Shown: in pieces, positions 29,820 to 55,018 of the stretch | Position numbering within the stretch: the first letter of the stretch is position 1 | Layout of the letters: each line of letters starts with the position of its first letter | Assembly: GCA_958009085.1 (NCBI GenBank) | Contig: OY253670.1 | Span: 1,302,001 to 1,366,000 of the forward strand | Reading direction: 5' to 3' | Source of the DNA: Protoeuglena noctilucae | Taxonomy: Eukaryota | DNA: 64,000 nucleotides | The notes under the pieces: model-generated | What the model was told of the DNA's origin: nothing | Databases searched by the model: none | The model's input: the letters and a program-made list of their open reading frames with translations, nothing else | Position numbers and translations under genes: made by a program

Positions 29820-29960
29820 GAAGCGTGATGGTACATGAACGCGTGCAGGGTCCATGCGTGTCATTGAACCGCAGATGCAGCGGATCATTTCATCTAAATG
29901 CTTATGAGGCGCAGAGTTGGTGCTAGCGTAACCTACTTGGACACCCAAGCAGGGCGCATG

Positions 29961-32454
29961 CTAGCTGTCATCCACAAGCGCTCCCTGCGCAGGCCCCTCC
30001 TGCATCGCCGACTGCCGGAGGTACGCCTGCAGAAGCCACGGTGGTACCGCATGGAATTTGAGCTGCAATAGCCATTGCGTGGTAGCCAGGCTGTTGCAAA
30101 AAGCAAACCCTCATCACCGAGCCACAGCTGCAGCCCACACACCTGGAGGAAGGCGTCAATGCCACCGTCCAGCACCGCCTGCACATCTGACGTCTGCACG
30201 CCCGTGCGCACGTCCTTGACGAGCTTGTAAGGGTGCTGCGGGGGATGGGCAGGGTAGCGACGGCTGACACTCGCACAGCGAGACAAAGCAGCCCTCGCGG
30301 CCGTGGCTGCGGCCATGCCAATTAAGGGACACCGAGCTATGTAGAGACGGCCAGGGCATGGGATCAGAGGTCGCTTTGCAAGTCATGCCGCACCTGCACG
30401 TAGTTGCGGATCTGCTGCCCCCACTCCGCCTTGACCAAGTCCCCACGGATGTCGGCAATCTCCTTGGCCCGCTGCTCCTGCGGGGCAGAGCAAGCAGCCA
30501 CGGGGCAGCGTCCAGGCAGGCAGCGGACCCCATCCCCAGACACGCCCGCCGCTGTCAGGCAGCCCTCACTTGCGCGATGACCGCCAGCTTGGCCTTGAGG
30601 TACGCCAGGGCTCGCTTCTTGTTCTCAACCTGCGTGCGCGCCTCCGCGCACCGCACCGTCACCCCGGTCGGCAGGTGCTTGATCCGGACGGCTGTCTCGA
30701 CCTTGTTCACGTTCTGTGAGGCAGAGATGCACGAGCGATGGCACGCTGGGCGAGGGCCGAGCTCGCCACGGCGCACAGCCCACGCAACAGCCACGGGACC
30801 GTCTCACAGACGCCCGCGTGCCCGGGCTCTGCCACCCTCGCACTCGCCTGCCCGCCCGCTCCTCCTGCCCGCATCGTCGTGATCTCCAAGTCACCCTCGG
30901 GAACCTCAATCGCCCCGGCCGCATTGTCATCCAGCAGGGGCATGACCTCCACGCCCGCGAAGGACGTCTCCCGGGTCCCCGTGTTCTTCAGAGGGTTCGT
31001 CCGCACCAGGCGGTGCGTCCCCTTCTCGCCCTTGAGCAGCCCGTACGCGAAGCGACCGCGCACCTCGAACTCTGCGGCCACAGCGGGGCGCTCTCAGGAA
31101 TGCGCCTGGGGCCGAGCAGGGTCCACAGGGCGAGTCGTTGCAGGGTAAGCGACACGCAGCACTCGCTTGGAGTTGCGTGGCCCCTCACCGGAGCTCTTGA
31201 TGCCCGCCCCCTCGCCCTCGGAGCGCACCAGCGTCTGCACCTGAAAGCCACGACGCTTGGCCCACTGCGCGCTTGGAGAGCAGCGCCTACTCTCACTCCT
31301 CGCAGCTGAGAATGGCTCACGCATGCAGAACGCCACACCGACCCGCACCTGCCCGGCCTTCGCGATCACCTGCTGGTACATGCGCTCGACCATCTCGGCC
31401 CAGTCCTGGGCGTCCAGCCCCCCCACGCCGGCATTGACCGTCACCACCGCGTCCGACTCGTCAAAGGGGCCCCCAAGCACCTTCTGCAGCTCCACCTCGT
31501 CCACCAACTCCGCCAACCGCTGGGACAGCTCCGAAGCCTCCCTGAGAGAAAGCGCGAACGGTACCATTGGATGACTGGCAGGGCGCCCGGTGTACCGTGG
31601 GTCATGCCAGCCACGCGCTGCTCGCCGGAGGAAGTCGGCGCGTTCCTGCTCGTCCACGTCGGCAGACTCGGCGAGCTCAATGGCCGCCGCGAGGTCCCCT
31701 GCGTGCCGCGAAGCAGGCGGCAGACGCTTCACAAGGCGCGCATGTGGGGCGGCCCCATGGTACCTCCTTCTCTGCCTCACCGTCCAAAGCAGCGAGTTGC
31801 TCGGCCTTGGCCAGGTCCGCCTTGACCCCGGACGTCCGCTGGAGCAGCGCCCGCGCCTCGTCCGGCGCTTCCCACAGCGCAGGGTCCGCGGCCTGCGCAC
31901 GCGCACCATGGCGAGGCGTGGCACGCAGGTAGTATCCCACGGGCAAAGCGCTCTTGCGGCGAGGAGAATGACGAGCGCGCCACCATCGGTGGCTCTCACC
32001 TTGGCCTCCAGGGCCTGCAGCGTCTGGCAAAGGCCGTCGACCTTCAGCACGTCCAGGCACGTCTGCACGCGGTGCCCCAGCTCCGCGTGGGCAGCCTGCG
32101 GCCACCAGAGCGTGCGGGGTTCCCATGGCGGCCCTTCATCACTCCCAGACCGCGCGATCGTGTCGCGCAGGAGCCCCTCGCCTTCACCGAGGCGAGCGTG
32201 TCGAACGCGCTGGCCGTGGGCGAGGTCGATGCCTGGCAAGTGAGCGACCTTGGACGGGAGCACGGGCAAGAGTATTCAACGAGGGCCCCGGGAGCCGAGG
32301 CGCGCCCCGCGTAGGGACTCCATGTCGGGAGCATCGGCGGGCGGCACGCCGCCAAGGGCACCCCGTGGACGCAGGCGGGGATGGCCGCGAGAGCGCTTCG
32401 GCGGAATCGCGTGGCGAAGGCTGACAGAGACATCACGCTCCAGGAAACGCTCAT
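29961..32454 (-). CDS. prfB: Organellar (probably plastid) peptide chain release factor 2 with an atypical codon-recognition loop; 10 exons
   Basis: Transit-peptide-like N-terminus; AGVGGLDAQDWAEM, GIKS, YGLLKGEKGTHRLVR, TSFAGVEVMP, RAGGAGGQNVNKVETAVR, EWGQQIRNYV.HPY, VLDGGID. GC-AG introns 30714-30847, 31542-31625 and 32096-32181. Confidence 0.92.
30714..30847 (-). other. GC-AG intron immediately after the GGQ catalytic motif of RF2
   Basis: CAG|GCGAGT...TCACAG|AAC; its removal is required to give GGQ-NVNK. Confidence 0.9.
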
Positions 32455-32762: not shown

Positions 32763-34835
<2,073 letters not shown>

Positions 34836-47892: not shown

Positions 47893-50800
47893 ATGTGCAC
47901 GATTGAAAAGATGGAGATCCGGGGCATCCGGTCCTTCAGCCCGCTATCCAGCTCAGGCAAGCACGCTCCCTTGGTTGCTGCTCCTGCCGTCGCGCACGCC
48001 TCCTGACGACATCGACGACGACCGTGCCGTGTCCTTGACCCCGCAGTCATCACGTTCTCCAAGCCCCTGTGTCTCATCGTGGGCCACAACGGCGCCGGGA
48101 AGACGGTGAGTGCCGGGGCGGGACGAGCTGCGCCTTGGCTCTGTCCTCCGGCCCTTCCTAACGCGGATGCGAATTCAATTCGATCTCTCTCAACTCCCCA
48201 GACCATTATCGAGTGCCTTAAGCAGGCCTGCACGGGGGAGCTTCCCCCCAACTGCCGCAGCGGGCACAGCTTCATCCACGACCCGAAGGCGAGCAGGCTG
48301 GGTACATTAATATGCATGTTCTCACCCGTGCACCTGTCAGATGACCCGCTGCGTCGCGTGTCGGGGCCCCGGGGGCTGCTGCACCCTGTCATGGTCTTGC
48401 TCTGCGTGTCGCAGATTTCCGGCGACCACGAGGTGCGAGGGCAGGTCAAGCTCAAGATCATAGGAACGCAAGGCGTGCCCGTGGTCGTCACGCGCTCGTT
48501 CATGGCGAAGCAGACCCAGAAGACGCTGCAGTTCAAGTCCCTGGACGCCAGCCTCACCACGCGGTGCGGGCACTGCAGCAGCCACAGCGCCCGCTGCCAC
48601 CCGCGTGCCCCTCGCTCACTCCGTCGCTTGCGATGTCGCCGCCCGCAGCAAGGAGGGGACTAGCAAGGCCGAGTCCATCTCGTACAAGTGTGCCGAGGTC
48701 GACAAGATGGTGCCCTCGATCATGGGCGTGTCCGAGGCCGTGCTGGAGAACGTCATCTTCGTGCACCAGGAGGACTCGACCTGGCCGCTCGCAGAGGGGT
48801 CGGTGCTGAAGAAGAAATTCGACGACATCTTCGCCGCCACCAAGGTTGGTGGGCTGTGCCGCCTTACACCGCCACTTCGACGTTGCCAGCCGCTGCGCTC
48901 GCTCACCGCGTGCCTCTGCTCGCGCGCCGCAGTACTCCAAGGCCTTAGAGCAGCTGCACCGCCTGGTGAAGGAGCAGAAGGCGCTGGCCAAGGAAGCCAA
49001 GCTGAAGCTGGAGACCTGCCGGGTGGTCAAGGAGCAGGCGGAGAAGCTGCGGCGGGACATCCGGGACAACGGTGAGCGCCTTGACCGACGCCCAGGCTCG
49101 TTTCAGTGGACCTGGGCGCCTTGCGTGCCCTGCGAGGTCGCATTGATGCCCAGCAACCTGTGAGCCTTCTTTTGTGTCCGCAGAGCTGAATGCGCAGAAT
49201 TTCCAGGAGAAGATTGAGGCGGCGCGTGCGCGCGTGGAGACGCACAAGGAGCAGCTGCGCGCGGCCAACGAGAAGCTCAGGCGCATCGCGGAGCTCTCGC
49301 AGGAGATCACCGACCTGCAGGCGCGCCACGAGGTGCAGCACAAGGTGAGCGGGGAGGGGGGGTCGTTCGACGTTGGCGACACGTGGTTATGGACGGGTGC
49401 GGGGTTGGGGCTGTCGAGGAGCTGGTTTGTGACGGTGGGGCGTGCTCTGCTCGCAGCAACTGACCGAGCTGCGGACGAGGATGGGGCCCCAGGCGGACTT
49501 CAAAGAGACGCTGGAAGAGCTGGAGAAGGCGAGGAGCTGTGCGCAGGCTGGGCTCTGGACCAGATCACTCAGTAGCATGCGTGATGACTCATCGCGTCTC
49601 TCCGGGTTTGTCCTCAGGCGATGGACGAGCAGGTGGAGGGCAAGATGGCGGCGATGCGCGCCGAGATGCACAGCCGGCGCCACGACATGTCGCTCAAGGG
49701 CCAGGAGCTGGACGCCATGAAGGCGGCATACTCTGACGCATGCAAGCGGCAGGGGCGACTGGTCGCCGAGGTGCGGCTGGGCTGGGGTTGCGGTCAGCGA
49801 TGCATCTTATGGGATCGTTGACTGAGACGCGACGTGCATGCGATGCCCACTTCAGCGGGTGGAGATTGGGTCGTGTGTTGATGGCCGCCTCTCTCGGCAT
49901 GCGCAGGTGGATCAGCTCACGGAGCAGGTCAAGCAGCGGGACGCGCTCCTCTCGGCGGAGGGCTCCAAGCTCGGCGTCACGGGCCTGGGCCTCCACGACG
50001 GGCGGCTGTCCGACGACCAAGTGCAGCACGGCCTCCGGTCCCTCTCAGCCCTGGTGAGCAACCTTCAGCGACCTCTCGCTCGGCCCTTCTGATCCGTGCG
50101 TGTGCTGAGTTAGAAAGGTGCGGATGAGTCTTATGACCCAACCTCGCGTGGTGCTGTCGCAGGCGGACCAGTGTGTCGCGGAGCTCCAGGCCATGAAGGA
50201 CCGTCACCGTCGAGCGGACGAGGCGCTGGCGGCCAGGGTGGACGCGGCGACGGCCGAGCTCACGGCCGCGTCCGAAGTGCGCAGGGCGGCCCTGGGGCGG
50301 AGGGAGGCCAGCGACCGCAAGGCCGCGGCGCTGCAGGCGCGGCTCGCGGGGATGCCGGCCACGGGCGATGCGCTGCGGGAGGCGGAGGAAAGGGAGAGGC
50401 AGGCGAGACCGCGCGCTGTGAACCTGCATTGCACGTGCGCTCGGCGTGCCACTGCCCAACCAACACATGTCGCACCCCTGCAGGCACGCGAGGTGTTGAT
50501 GCGCAAGCAGCAGGAGCTCTCAGAGCAAGACCTGGAGTCGAGGGCCGACGAGCTGGTCCTGCAGGTCGCGGACGCCACGCGCAAGGCGCAGCGGCTGCGG
50601 GCGCGTCGGGACCAGCTGGCCCAGGCGGCCGCCAGCACCGCGCGGCTCAGGCGAGGGCCGGGGACTGGCACGCGCTCATTGCTACCACCCGCCCGGGTCC
50701 CTGCGCGGCTGACGTGCGATGCTCGTCTGCTCGTCGCAGGGTCAAGCGCCAGGACCTGGCCTCGAAGGAGCAGCAGCTGGAGGGGGTCGTGACGGGCGGC

Positions 50801-53800
50801 CGGGCCCAAGTGGAGGCGGTGCTGGGCGTGGCGCCGGGGGCGGACCTGCCGGCCCCCGTGGCGCTGGCGGACGCGCTGGACGCGCGGGCGGGGGAGCTGG
50901 GCGCGGAGGCGGAGCGGGTGGAGGCGCGGGCGCAGGCGGTGACGCACCGGTGCCGCGAGCACGAGGCGGCCCTGGCGGTGGTGCGGGGAGAGGCGGCGCG
51001 GCTGGGGGCGGAGGAGGAGTCCCTGCAGTCGCAGCTGGACGCCGTCATGGCCACGCAGGCGAGCGCACGGCAGCGCCGAGGCAGCCTGGGCAAGAAGCAA
51101 TGACGATTTCCGCTGGGTACCCCGGGTGTCAAATACGCTGCTACCCTTGGCACACTAACTGCGTCGTTGCTGCTTCCCGTCCCTCGCAGATGCCGGGTCC
51201 CTCGGCGCCCCCGCTGCAATCTCAGGCGGGGTTTGAGCAGGCCCTCCAGGACCTGGAGGAGCGGCTGCAGGCGCAGATGACGGCACGGGAGGGCCAGACG
51301 GTGCTGATTGGGACGTGGGAGGCCTTCGCCAAGAGGGGGCGGAAGCACGGCAAGTGCGCCGTGTGCCAGAGGGCATTCCACGGCGAAGAGGAGCTCCACA
51401 CGTGAGGGCAGACGCAGACAGAGGCCGCTGGTGCGACCCCATGGCTGTCACTAGCCCTCGTGGAATGCGGGTGCCGAGGCAGCAGGGGGTGCAATTGCTT
51501 TCACATGGCTTGGTCGCCTTGCATCCGGTGTACTTGCTGCCTTGCATCTGTCTGAGTCGGCTGTGCTCCCCCGCAGGTACGTGACGTTCTGCGAGCGGGA
51601 GCGCGCGAGGCTGCAGGAGAGCTGGCAGCAGGGGGACGCGGAGGTGTCCGCGGACCAGCGCCAGATGGAGCGTTTCAAGCTGGCGCAGCCGCTTTGGGCG
51701 CGGCTGCGGGAGGTGCAGCAGTCGCTGCTGCCGGACGCGCGGACCCGCGTGGCGGAGCTGGAGGCCGAGCTGGCGCGGCACAAGGAGCGGCAGGAGGAGG
51801 CGGACGGCGCGGCAGAGCAGGCACGGGGGCGGGCGCGGCGGGCGGCAGAGGCGGCCGCGGGGGTGGGCGCGGAGGCCCGACGTCTGGCCAAGGAGGCAGC
51901 TGCTTTGCGGGAGGAGGTGGGGGAGCTCGAGGCGCGAGCGGGGGCGGCGGGTGGCCCCGTGGGCGACGCGGAGGCGGTGTCGCGGGAGCTGGAGGCCGAG
52001 GAGGCGCGGCGCACGTCGCTGGAGCGGGAACGGGAGGAGGCGATGCGGCAGCTGGCGGCGCTGAAGGACGCGGTGGTTGCGGCGGGCAATGCCTGGAGGG
52101 ACGCGAAGGAGGAGACGGCGGGGGTGCAGGCGAGGGGACTAGCTGGCACGACTTGGCTGGGCTGCATGCATAGTGGTGGTGCCGAGAGCGGGGGCTTGCT
52201 CGTGGGTCCTGTATCATATCGGCGCCTGTCCTGTCGCTTCGTTCGCTTCGCTGCGTTGGTAGGACTCTTCTCGCCCGTGTGTCCCCAGGCGCGGCTGCGT
52301 GAGGGCGATGCTCTGCGGGAGCAGCTGGCGGAGGTGGAGCGGGAGCGGGCGTCGGCGCTGGCGGAGGCGGAGAAGGCCGGGGCGGCAGAGGCGCCGCTGG
52401 AGGCGCGGCGCGAGGAGGCCCGGGCGCAGCGGGCGCAGGAGCGCGACGCGGCTGCGAGGGCCGAGGCTGCAGGGGAGGAGCGGCTGCGTGCGGCGCGGGC
52501 GGTGCTGGACCGGGTGCGCCAGGCGGCCGAGGCGGTGGCGGCTCTGGAGAAGCGGGGGGCGGCGGGGGAGCTGGCGGCGCTGGGGCGTGAGCTGCAGCGG
52601 CAGGAGGGGGCGCAGCGAGCGCTGGAGGAGGAGATGCGGGCGCTGCAGGCGGACCTGGACGGGATGGCGCAGAGCGTGAGCGAGACGGAGGCGATTCGAA
52701 AGGCGATGCAGGAGGCGGTGGACCTGCGGCGGTTGGAGAAGGACGTGGCAGCGCTGGGGGCGCGGGTGCGGGCGGCGCTGGAGCAGCGGGAGGCGGTGGG
52801 GGACGCGCGGGACATCCAGCAGGCAGTGGCGCGCGCGGACGCGGCGTCGCGGGAGGCGCAGCACACGCTGAGCATGGCGGAGGGCGCGCAGGCCACGGTG
52901 CGGCACCAGGCGCAGCGGGCCAAGGAGGAGCTGGCGGACGTGAAGTATCGGGACGTGGACGAGCGGTACCGGGCGCAGAGGTGAGGGGAGAGGCTGTTAC
53001 GGTCTATTGCACGTGACTGGGGCCCAGGGTGACACGCGCGCATTGGTCGTGGCGCTGCTTGCGAGCGTCGCACAGGCATGTGGCGCCGGCCATGACGGTG
53101 GTCACGGCGTTTGCGCGTGGTCCCCCGCAGCGTGGAGCAGCACACGGCGGAGATGTGCATCTCGGATCTGGAGAAGTACTCTCGTGCGTTGGAGAAGGCG
53201 TTGCTGGCGTTCCACGGGGAGAAGATGGAGGAGATCAACCAGACGATCAAGGAGCTGTGGCAGCGCACGTACCGCAACCAGGACATCGACTCCATTCAGA
53301 TAAGAGCCGAGGCCGACACGACGTCGGCGAGGCGGTCGTACAACTACCGTGTGGTGATGCACGTGGGCGGGACGGAGCTGGACATGCGGGGGCGGTGCTC
53401 GGCGGGGCAGAAGGTCCTCGCCTGCCTCATCATCCGCCTCGCGCTGTCCGAGACCTTCTGCATCAACTGCGGCATCCTGGCCCTGGACGAGCCCACCACC
53501 AACCTCGACACGGAGAACGCCGCCAGCCTCGCCGAGGCACTCAGGCCAGTCGATGGCGGGGGCAGCGCGATCCGCGGCGGCGCTTGGAGAACGCGTGCGC
53601 GTACTTGCAGCAGCGCAGTGCGCCTGTGGTAGCGCGGCCCATGCAACGCGCCCAGTAGATGACCGCGCGTTGCCTGGGCCCAACGCAGGGCCCTCATGGA
53701 CGCCCGCCGTCAAAACTCCAATTTCCAGCTGGTGGTCATCACGCACGACGAGAGCTTCGCGCACAGGGTGGGCAGCCGGGAGCTGGCGGACCACATGTGG

Positions 53801-54109: not shown

Positions 54110-55018
54110 ATGCCCAAGCTCGTCGACGTGACGACGACCCTCTGGGGCATGGAGTACTCCGTGCATGGTGACAGATGATCATGACATCGGGCACTGGGAG
54201 GGGGCGCGGGGGGGACGCGAAAGCGCGGCGCAGGGAGGCCATGCATGGGCAGGCCTCGCCGCGTTCAATTCGCAGCCGCACGCTCTCTGTAACCCGCGAT
54301 TTGGCACGACATGATACAAATGCGATCGGCCGGCGAACATCCTTCCATACTCGGCGCTCCCAGAGGTGCCGAAGAGCCACCGCGACGAGGTGGCGGCCGT
54401 CTTCCCGGGGATGGACATGACGGGCGCGCTGGTGGTGCCGACTTGCCAGCAGGTGCATATGTCTCGGAGAAGACCCGAGGGACTGCTCGCGCGATGCCTC
54501 GTTTCCTCGCGGCGGTCGCCGGGCTCCTCAAAAGTGGTTGCGATCGCACGCAGTCTCGCCTCGACCTCGTTAACGTCGGCCCGGACATTGAAGCGGAGAA
54601 GGACTATTGTCTCGAGCGCTTCATGAGCTGGGCATCGCAAGTCTGCGATACGCTCGTGGCGCGCGGGTTTTGGGCGGACTTCATCGACCCATGCTCGGGG
54701 CTCCCCATGGCGAGGGCCGCGCGATCCCTCTGGCCCAGCAAGCGTTGCATTCCGCTTCATGTGTGGCATCAGACGTCCTCCGCGCCCTCGCAGCGGTCCA
54801 AGGTGAACGGGGGCGTCTACCCGGAGGTGCAGGCGCTCTCGACGCTGCTGAACTACCGCACCTCCAATGCGGGGTGCTGCCGCGTCGTACTGCACCCCAA
54901 GTGGGCCACGTCCGTGTACCCCGCGAGTCTCTTCGCCAAGGCGCCCCTGGAGGAGCTCCTTGCCGCCATCAGGGAGGCGGAGGCAAAGCTGGGCGGGGCG
55001 AGCCATGAGGCAGGGTGA
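54110..55018 (+). CDS. MMADHC: Cobalamin trafficking protein CblD/MMADHC-like; start uncertain
   Basis: MEYSVH, VPTCQ, EKD..LERF..WA..VC..L...GFWADFIDPCSGLPM, GCCRVVLHPKWATSVYPASLFAKAP. Third intron GC-AG, 54710-54793. Confidence 0.85.

Follow-up and report, generated by a model that had tools for sequence, protein, structure and literature searches.

To our knowledge, no proteins other than release factors read codons directly, and changes of their "peptide anticodon" in nature are, as far as we know, very rare; every such change that we know of has pointed to an altered set of organellar stop codons. The plastid-type release factor RF2 (pRF2) of Arabidopsis is AT5G36170 (i.e., HCF109/PrfB1). 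In RF2, it is the Ser of the SPF tripeptide that permits either A or G as the middle base of the codon (PMC6821328). Here, we describe a nuclear gene for a plastid-type RF2 in which SPF is replaced by NPL. The gene lies in a stretch of 64,000 nucleotides of DNA from Protoeuglena noctilucae (assembly GCA_958009085.1, contig OY253670.1, positions 1,302,001 to 1,366,000), which we refer to in full as the window and within which all positions are given. From the features of the sequence, we propose, with a probability of about 0.55, that the protein is a working release factor with changed acceptance at codon position 2.

The closest described systems are organellar RF2s of other lineages. In labyrinthulean mitochondrial RF2a (mtRF2a), Ala, Gly, or Cys is described in place of the invariant "Ser204" of the codon-binding region, and UUA acts as a stop codon, while in the pRF2 of green-plastid dinoflagellates (peDinoflagellates) this residue is Cys or Ala, further substitutions and a two-residue deletion are present, and both UUA and UCA serve as stops (PMC12574857, which cites Zihala et al. 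2020, Mol Phylogenet Evol). The window protein resembles these factors in that GGQ is kept and the invariant loop serine is substituted, with a proposed effect at codon position 2. It differs from them in that the link to UUA and UCA stops there comes from organelle genomes, whereas the finding here is one in a nuclear gene, and in that no indel is present. Substitution of the invariant serine, the trait of re-specified RF2s, is thus found here (S to N), but the residue is other than Ala, Gly, or Cys. Vertebrate mtRF1 is an RF1-derived paralogue that exists beside mtRF1a and carries insertions in the recognition loop and helix alpha-5. Like the window protein, it is a class I release factor with a rebuilt tripeptide region and GGQ kept, and it reads nonstandard stops (cited as AGA and AGG in PMC12574857). 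PrfB3 (i.e., mtRF2b; AT3G57190) is, as the window protein appears to be, derived from plastid RF2 and is without SPF, but it is also without GGQ and is not a release factor (PMC3472500). In contrast, the window protein keeps GGQ and the entire catalytic domain. A change near the recognition loop can also broaden RF2 specificity, as in E. coli RF2 E167K; in this laboratory mutant (PDB 8p16), the change lies elsewhere and SPF is unaltered.

The RF2 gene is on the minus strand (32334 to 29961) and has 11 exons, with an ATG at 32334 and a TAG at 29963 to 29961 (Table 1). Its exon joints were taken from RNA contigs of two metatranscriptomes (X9 and X11). The joined exons form an open reading frame of 430 amino acids that is identical to residues 8 to 437 of P0001, a transcript-derived database protein whose numbering is used below for residue changes. 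On the plus strand, positions 30989 to 30997 read cagagggtt, the reverse complement of which (AAC CCT CTG) encodes N-P-L, and exon 7 translates as ...GEKGTHRLVR-T-NPL-KNTGTRE-TSFAGVEVMP...RAGGAGGQ. The spacing of the frame HRLVR-x-XXX-x7-TSF equals that of all 239 RF2 homologues that were fetched, and the recognition loop aligns without gaps with those of solved bacterial RF2s. The first-pass annotation, which was made from the letters of this stretch, had placed NPL at the SPF position with identical spacing and had called it a substitution rather than a frameshift or an indel; both statements are borne out by these comparisons.

We compared Logan contigs from four runs (DNA, X2 and X7; RNA, X9 and X11) with the window over positions 29900 to 32400. 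A single X2 DNA contig (depth of about 340) covers the whole interval with zero mismatches; X2 is possibly the source of the window DNA itself, while X7 represents another sample. The X7 DNA contigs likewise show zero mismatches in the 29 of 30 bins that they cover, among them the one with the motif. X9 and X11 each provided one RNA contig, in which ten segments are skipped and the same NPL exon is present. Since spliced contigs cannot derive from DNA, the RF2 gene is transcribed, and it is present in marine metagenomes and metatranscriptomes. A sequencing or assembly error, or a decaying pseudogene, could in principle have produced NPL, given that a single base change suffices for S to N (AGC to AAC) and likewise for F to L, but no support for such an origin was found. 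The letters of the motif are identical in DNA contigs of different samples and in both RNA contigs, the spliced transcript carries the intact frame of 430 amino acids, and the same loop occurs in three further lineages from other data sources. On these grounds, we exclude an artefact, the probability of which is negligible, and the assembly error that the first-pass annotation had kept in view is ruled out.

Pfam searches of the exon translations detected PF03462 (PCRF; E values of 1.2e-9 and 4.4e-12) and PF00472 (RF-1; E value of 1.2e-14), in agreement with the precomputed Pfam domains of P0001. The best match among solved structures is an RF2 (E value of 2.2e-80; 274 bits), while the best RF1 chain is matched at an E value of 1.6e-43; the window protein is an RF2 and not an RF1. 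It is most closely related to the plastid RF2s of chlorophytes and to cyanobacterial RF2s, and its identity to canonical sequences is 46 to 53% over the alignment (48 to 52% in seven computed pairs). Together with the trees described below, this agrees with the earlier description of the protein as an organellar RF2 and specifies it as the plastid/cyanobacterial type. With canonical pRF2 and cyanobacterial RF2, it shares the order of the PCRF and RF-1 domains, its length apart from an N-terminal extension, GGQ, the HRLVR and TSF flanks of the loop, and the GG-x-D tip. It differs from them by NPL (NPM in relatives) in place of SPF, by Lys in place of the following Asn, and by Glu in place of the Gln before TSF, as well as by an E-to-Q change in the RTGxETxD segment of domain 4 and a few changes in alpha-5. 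Thus, the SPF tripeptide of bacterial-type RF2 is missing, but the elements associated with codon bases 1 and 3 (i.e., AGVGGLDAQDW, HRLVR, and TSF) are all present. GGQ is intact in the context RAGGAGGQ/NVNKVETAVR (the slash marks the junction of exons 7 and 8), and the protein therefore does not show the combined loss of GGQ and SPF that characterizes PrfB3.

A predicted structural model based on 51 aligned sequences had a mean predicted local distance difference test score (pLDDT) of 83, with the fold and the loop well modelled, and it superposed best on free E. coli RF2 (1gqe; template modelling score of 0.82 by target). Residues 1 to 45 of the model are disordered (pLDDT of <50). The N-terminal extension of 44 amino acids is rich in Ser, Thr, Ala, Pro, and Arg (12 S+T, 7 A, 6 P, 3 R+K, and 1 D+E), and the alignment with bacterial RF2 starts near query residues 67 to 75. 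Its composition suggests that this extension is likely an organellar transit peptide, which may lead to the plastid, the mitochondrion, or both. Two in-frame ATGs are also found upstream of the annotated start (32433 to 32454, minus strand), past the end of the RNA contigs (32386); if transcribed, they would add some 30 to 40 residues to the presequence.

We tallied the tripeptide in the 239 RF2 homologues, all of which show the frame HRL(V/G)R-x-XXX-x7-TSF. SPF was found in 230 of these, SPY in 3, and NP(L/M) in 6. The six NP(L/M) sequences, drawn from JGI, ENA, and Logan records, form four 90% clusters: P0001 (NPL), P0005/P0122 (NPL), P0003/P0121 (NPM), and P0002 (NPM). The tripeptide is followed by KN(T/S)GTRE-TSF in all six, whereas canonical plastid and cyanobacterial sequences have N-x-x-x-x-R-Q-TSF. 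A scan of metagenome contigs with generic patterns gave 79 SPF, 1 SPY, and no NP(L/M) among the matches listed (at least 80 loci), a result that is uninformative on the rarity of the clade.

To describe conservation, we aligned 231 of the 239 sequences, having dropped four chimeric or redundant predictions and four sequences shorter than 200 amino acids. A column was considered conserved at a level of at least 90% in the canonical proteins (n = 137) and changed if it was altered in every NP(L/M) row having that column. Changes were found in 12 of the 137 conserved columns, i.e., 4 of the 14 within the loop segment of 19 residues versus 8 of the other 123 (one-sided Fisher P = 0.021). The loop changes are S260N, F262L/M, N263K, and Q269E, and column 260 is Ser in 228 of 228 canonical rows. 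The changes outside the loop comprise A191V and T194L/V beside the alpha-5 tip, L203V, R209Q, Y246L, E399Q (domain 4), and two N-terminal sites. No conserved column of the GGQ domain (residues 285 to 375) is altered (0 of 45), and the GGQ codons lie at 30856 to 30848; the earlier statement that GGQ and the remainder of the protein are intact holds in this respect. Also retained in the clade are D195 (of GG-x-D), V257 (of HRLVR), and T270 (of TSF), which occupy invariant or nearly invariant columns. From RF2-ribosome structures, we take the GG-x-D/E tip of alpha-5, the Val of HRLVR, and the Thr of TSF to be the readers of codon bases 1 and 3.

The altered loop has diverged little within the clade. 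Overall, P0001 and P0122 agree at 208 of 348 residues (59.8%), but they agree at 24 of 24 positions over residues 249 to 272, and P0003 differs from P0001 at 3 of these 24 residues. As judged from the loop identity of P0001 and P0122 at this overall divergence, the new loop is under purifying selection. Changes that cluster in a burst on a single functional loop and are then strictly conserved resemble a shift of function rather than relaxed constraint.

As the first-pass annotation had suggested, we placed the protein among its orthologues, and the altered loop proved to be conserved in one clade inside chlorophyte pRF2. The first tree was obtained by a quick IQ-TREE search (LG+C20) with 65 of the 239 sequences, chosen for their names and diversity; P0002, whose prediction includes a translated intron, and redundant cluster members were left out, and neither this tree nor the second one had a mitochondrial-type RF2 outgroup. 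In this tree, the three usable NP(L/M) rows are monophyletic (Shimodaira-Hasegawa-like approximate likelihood ratio test [SH-aLRT], 99) on a stem of 0.95, and they are nested in a chlorophyte pRF2 group of 48 rows (support, 93), with cyanobacteria outside. In a second tree of 43 rows, from which the loop columns (P0001 residues 246 to 272) had been removed, the clade is still monophyletic (SH-aLRT, 96), and its stem is shortened to 0.38. There, it adjoins the pRF2 of the pedinophyte YPF-701 (P0142) with an SH-aLRT of 88, which is below the trusted level for a quick search. The nuclear genome of YPF-701 has a G+C content of about 70%, and that of the window is 68.5%, possibly a hint of the affinity of the clade; the published nuclear value for Prasinoderma coloniale (69.8%) is similarly close. 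Should the lineage belong to the Prasinococcales, the organelle papers on Prasinoderma, which we do not count as evidence here, would be relevant; they describe the mitochondrial code as standard and list plastid trnL(uaa) and trnS(uga).

If specificity at codon position 2 has indeed changed, the following course of events may be envisaged. The nuclear gene of this marine green alga encodes an expressed class I RF2 of plastid type and cyanobacterial descent, in which the kept catalytic motif should allow peptide release to persist. The loop that reads the stop codon would have been rebuilt in one ancestral episode, in which the Ser that admits either purine at position 2 was exchanged for Asn, the Phe for Leu or Met, the next Asn for Lys, and the Gln before TSF for Glu, while the readers of U at position 1 and of A at position 3 and the GGQ domain stayed as they were. 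Since then, the new loop has remained nearly unchanged. Termination would continue on organellar ribosomes at codons of the U-N-A type with a changed acceptance of the middle base; i.e., either UGA would no longer be read or an extra codon, such as UUA or UCA, would be read. The sequence, its expression, the conservation within the clade, the position of the changes, and the persistence of the other functional motifs are observations; the release activity, the altered specificity, and the organelle served are what we infer. A bolder possibility, which we put forward only tentatively, is that the NP(L/M) factor is the nuclear footprint of an undescribed variant of an organellar code in this marine green-algal lineage, in which a sense codon of the U-N-A type (UUA or UCA, for example) would have become a stop or UGA would go unread, with RF2 kept for UAA.

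Several points weigh against a change at position 2. The identification of "Ser204" of the precedents (PMC12574857) with the S of SPF is probable and is based on the proximity of the numbering, which differs between papers. The known precedents have Ser replaced by Ala, Gly, or Cys, with a deletion in peDinoflagellates, whereas the residue here is Asn and no deletion is found. Asn donates and accepts hydrogen bonds like Ser and might still accept both A and G. Chlorophytes are described as having lost mitochondrial RF2 and as using UGA rarely or never in their plastomes, yet they keep a canonical pRF2, possibly for a mitochondrial role (PMC12574857 and PMC3472500); therefore, disuse of plastid UGA alone does not predict the loss of SPF. 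The Fisher P value for the loop (0.021) is modest, and its columns were picked after the motif had been seen, while the quick tree search is less reliable on long branches. Finally, a canonical SPF copy may be present elsewhere in the nuclear genome.

Some of these points would also fit a loop that does the same job with other residues. In such a case, NP(L/M)-KN-GTRE would be an equivalent reader of UAA and UGA, or of UAA alone, reached by drift and compensatory changes where plastid UGA was rare and subsequently frozen by coadaptation within the loop. GGQ and the readers of codon bases 1 and 3 persist, and the hydrogen bonding of Asn (our own inference) would suit an equivalent reader, but the four changes in the 10-residue loop are coordinated, and they lie on a long stem (0.95, or 0.38 without the loop) that is followed by strict conservation. 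SPY, found in 3 of the 239 sequences, shows that the tripeptide tolerates some change; it is the sole nonclassical RF2 motif mentioned in the accessible portion of the work of Duarte et al., where it is regarded as harmless (PMC3472500). However, NP(L/M) was found nowhere else in the 239 sequences, nor among the metagenome matches listed (at least 80). Likewise, pRF2 persists in chlorophytes that do not use UGA, but the Ser is present in all 228 canonical rows, including those of chlorophytes with little or no plastid UGA. We regard an equivalent reader as unlikely, but as the chief alternative to a changed specificity.

The long stem would also be expected of a neofunctionalized paralogue that exists beside a canonical SPF pRF2 and acts in organellar quality control, in rescue, or in the termination of special messages. 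Such a factor would be comparable to vertebrate mtRF1 and, without catalysis, to PrfB3, although the copy described here would be catalytic. Release factor families have repeatedly yielded specialized paralogues (PMC3472500), but this protein, unlike PrfB3, ICT1, and Microchloropsis mtRF2a, still has its readers of positions 1 and 3, and GGQ and the catalytic domain are unchanged in all 45 conserved columns. Moreover, the 64-kb window contains no second release factor gene, and no canonical sequence could be linked to this alga when a GC-rich copy was sought by amino acid composition. A specialized paralogue thus appears improbable, and a working factor with changed acceptance at position 2 is the reading that we prefer.

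In the literature on organellar release factors and variant stop codons, we found no earlier report of an RF2 with NPL or NPM. The pRF2 tree in S11 Fig of PMC12574857 includes Trebouxia, Chloropicon, Micromonas, Ostreococcus, Picochlorum, Chlorella, Auxenochlorella, five pedinophytes, Cymbomonas, Monoraphidium, Tetradesmus, and volvocaleans, and none of these taxa need correspond to the NP(L/M) clade. The literature check that the first-pass annotation had called for thus had a divided outcome: precedents of a changed serine exist, but none of them has NPL or NPM. Probably, the NPL/NPM loop is new, while substitution of the same serine was already known and tied to UUA and UCA stops elsewhere.

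The coordinates of the gene are given in Table 1. Of its 10 introns, 7 are of the GT-AG type and 3 of the GC-AG type with GCGAG donors, with ambiguity of the joints allowed for. This share of GC-AG introns (3 of 10), which is confirmed by the spliced RNA contigs, is unusually high; such introns typically account for about 1% in eukaryotes.

Table 1. Features of the plastid-type RF2 gene in the window (positions counted from the first nucleotide of the window)
Feature	Positions	Strand	Basis
RF2 coding region, 430 amino acids	29961..32334	-	Spliced exons, RNA joints, PCRF and RF-1 domains
Exon 1, beginning at the first ATG within the assembled RNA; N-terminal extension and start of the RF2 body	32182..32334	-	
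GC-AG intron	32096..32181	-	RNA contigs
Exon 2	32000..32095	-	RNA contigs
Exon 3	31781..31892	-	RNA contigs
Exon 4	31626..31698	-	RNA contigs
GC-AG intron	31542..31625	-	RNA contigs
Exon 5, PCRF domain, with the alpha-5 tip AGVGGLDAQDW	31370..31541	-	Domain match, RNA contigs, alignment
Exon 6	31189..31264	-	RNA contigs
Exon 7, bearing the recognition loop and GGQ	30848..31071	-	Translation, domain match, RNA contigs
Codon recognition loop HRLVR-T-NPL-KNTGTRE-TSF, residues 247 to 265 of the 430-amino-acid protein	30959..31015	-	
NPL codons AAC CCT CTG, at the SPF position	30989..30997	-	Letters; same in DNA and RNA contigs
Codons of the GGQ catalytic motif, the final codons of exon 7	30848..30856	-	Translation
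GC-AG intron, donor GCGAGT, directly 3' of GGQ	30714..30847	-	RNA contigs
Exon 8, RF-1 domain, NVNKVETAVR...	30570..30713	-	Domain match, RNA contigs
Exon 9	30394..30477	-	RNA contigs
Exon 10, with the clade-specific E-to-Q change in RTGVQTSD	30143..30235	-	RNA contigs, alignment
Exon 11, coding part and TAG stop	29961..30026	-	RNA contigs

The window has a G+C content of 68.5%, contains no N, and carries ordinary green-algal nuclear genes (i.e., those for ribosomal protein L5, Rad50, a ubiquitin-conjugating enzyme, ClpP, and the chloroplast-type ATP synthase gamma subunit, among others). The gene for the gamma subunit (atpC; 33400 to 34835, plus strand), which encodes a redox loop of the form Cys-x-x-x-x-x-Cys, is arranged head to head with the RF2 gene at a distance of about 1.1 kb, and its best named matches (69 to 72%) are to the pedinophyte YPF-701 and Chromochloris. 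The protein cluster of this atpC is made up of Logan, ENA, and JGI records, with no member from NCBI, EukProt, or MMETSP, and no named protein comes nearer than about 75%. In a relative with the NPM form, the protein clusters of atpC and RF2 have longest contigs of matching lengths (9,910 and 11,254), which suggests, from these figures alone, a conserved pair. Two exons of a ClpP protease gene (PF00574; 35464 to 36273, minus strand) are located just beyond atpC; therefore, three organelle-related nuclear genes are adjacent. Elsewhere in the window, an MMADHC-like domain (cobalamin trafficking; 54293 to 55015, plus strand) adjoins the Rad50 gene (48007 to 53629).

A clade that appears to alter only the reader of position 2, with catalysis and the readers of the other two positions preserved, would provide a clean natural experiment on how release factors discriminate the middle base of a codon. 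If its specificity is unchanged, the clade would still show that A or G at position 2 can be read without the Ser. If instead the factor reflects a variant code, Asn would add a third, independent solution to those known at the serine reading position 2. The NP(L/M) factor thus directs the search for a new organellar code to the plastid and mitochondrial genomes of this marine lineage.

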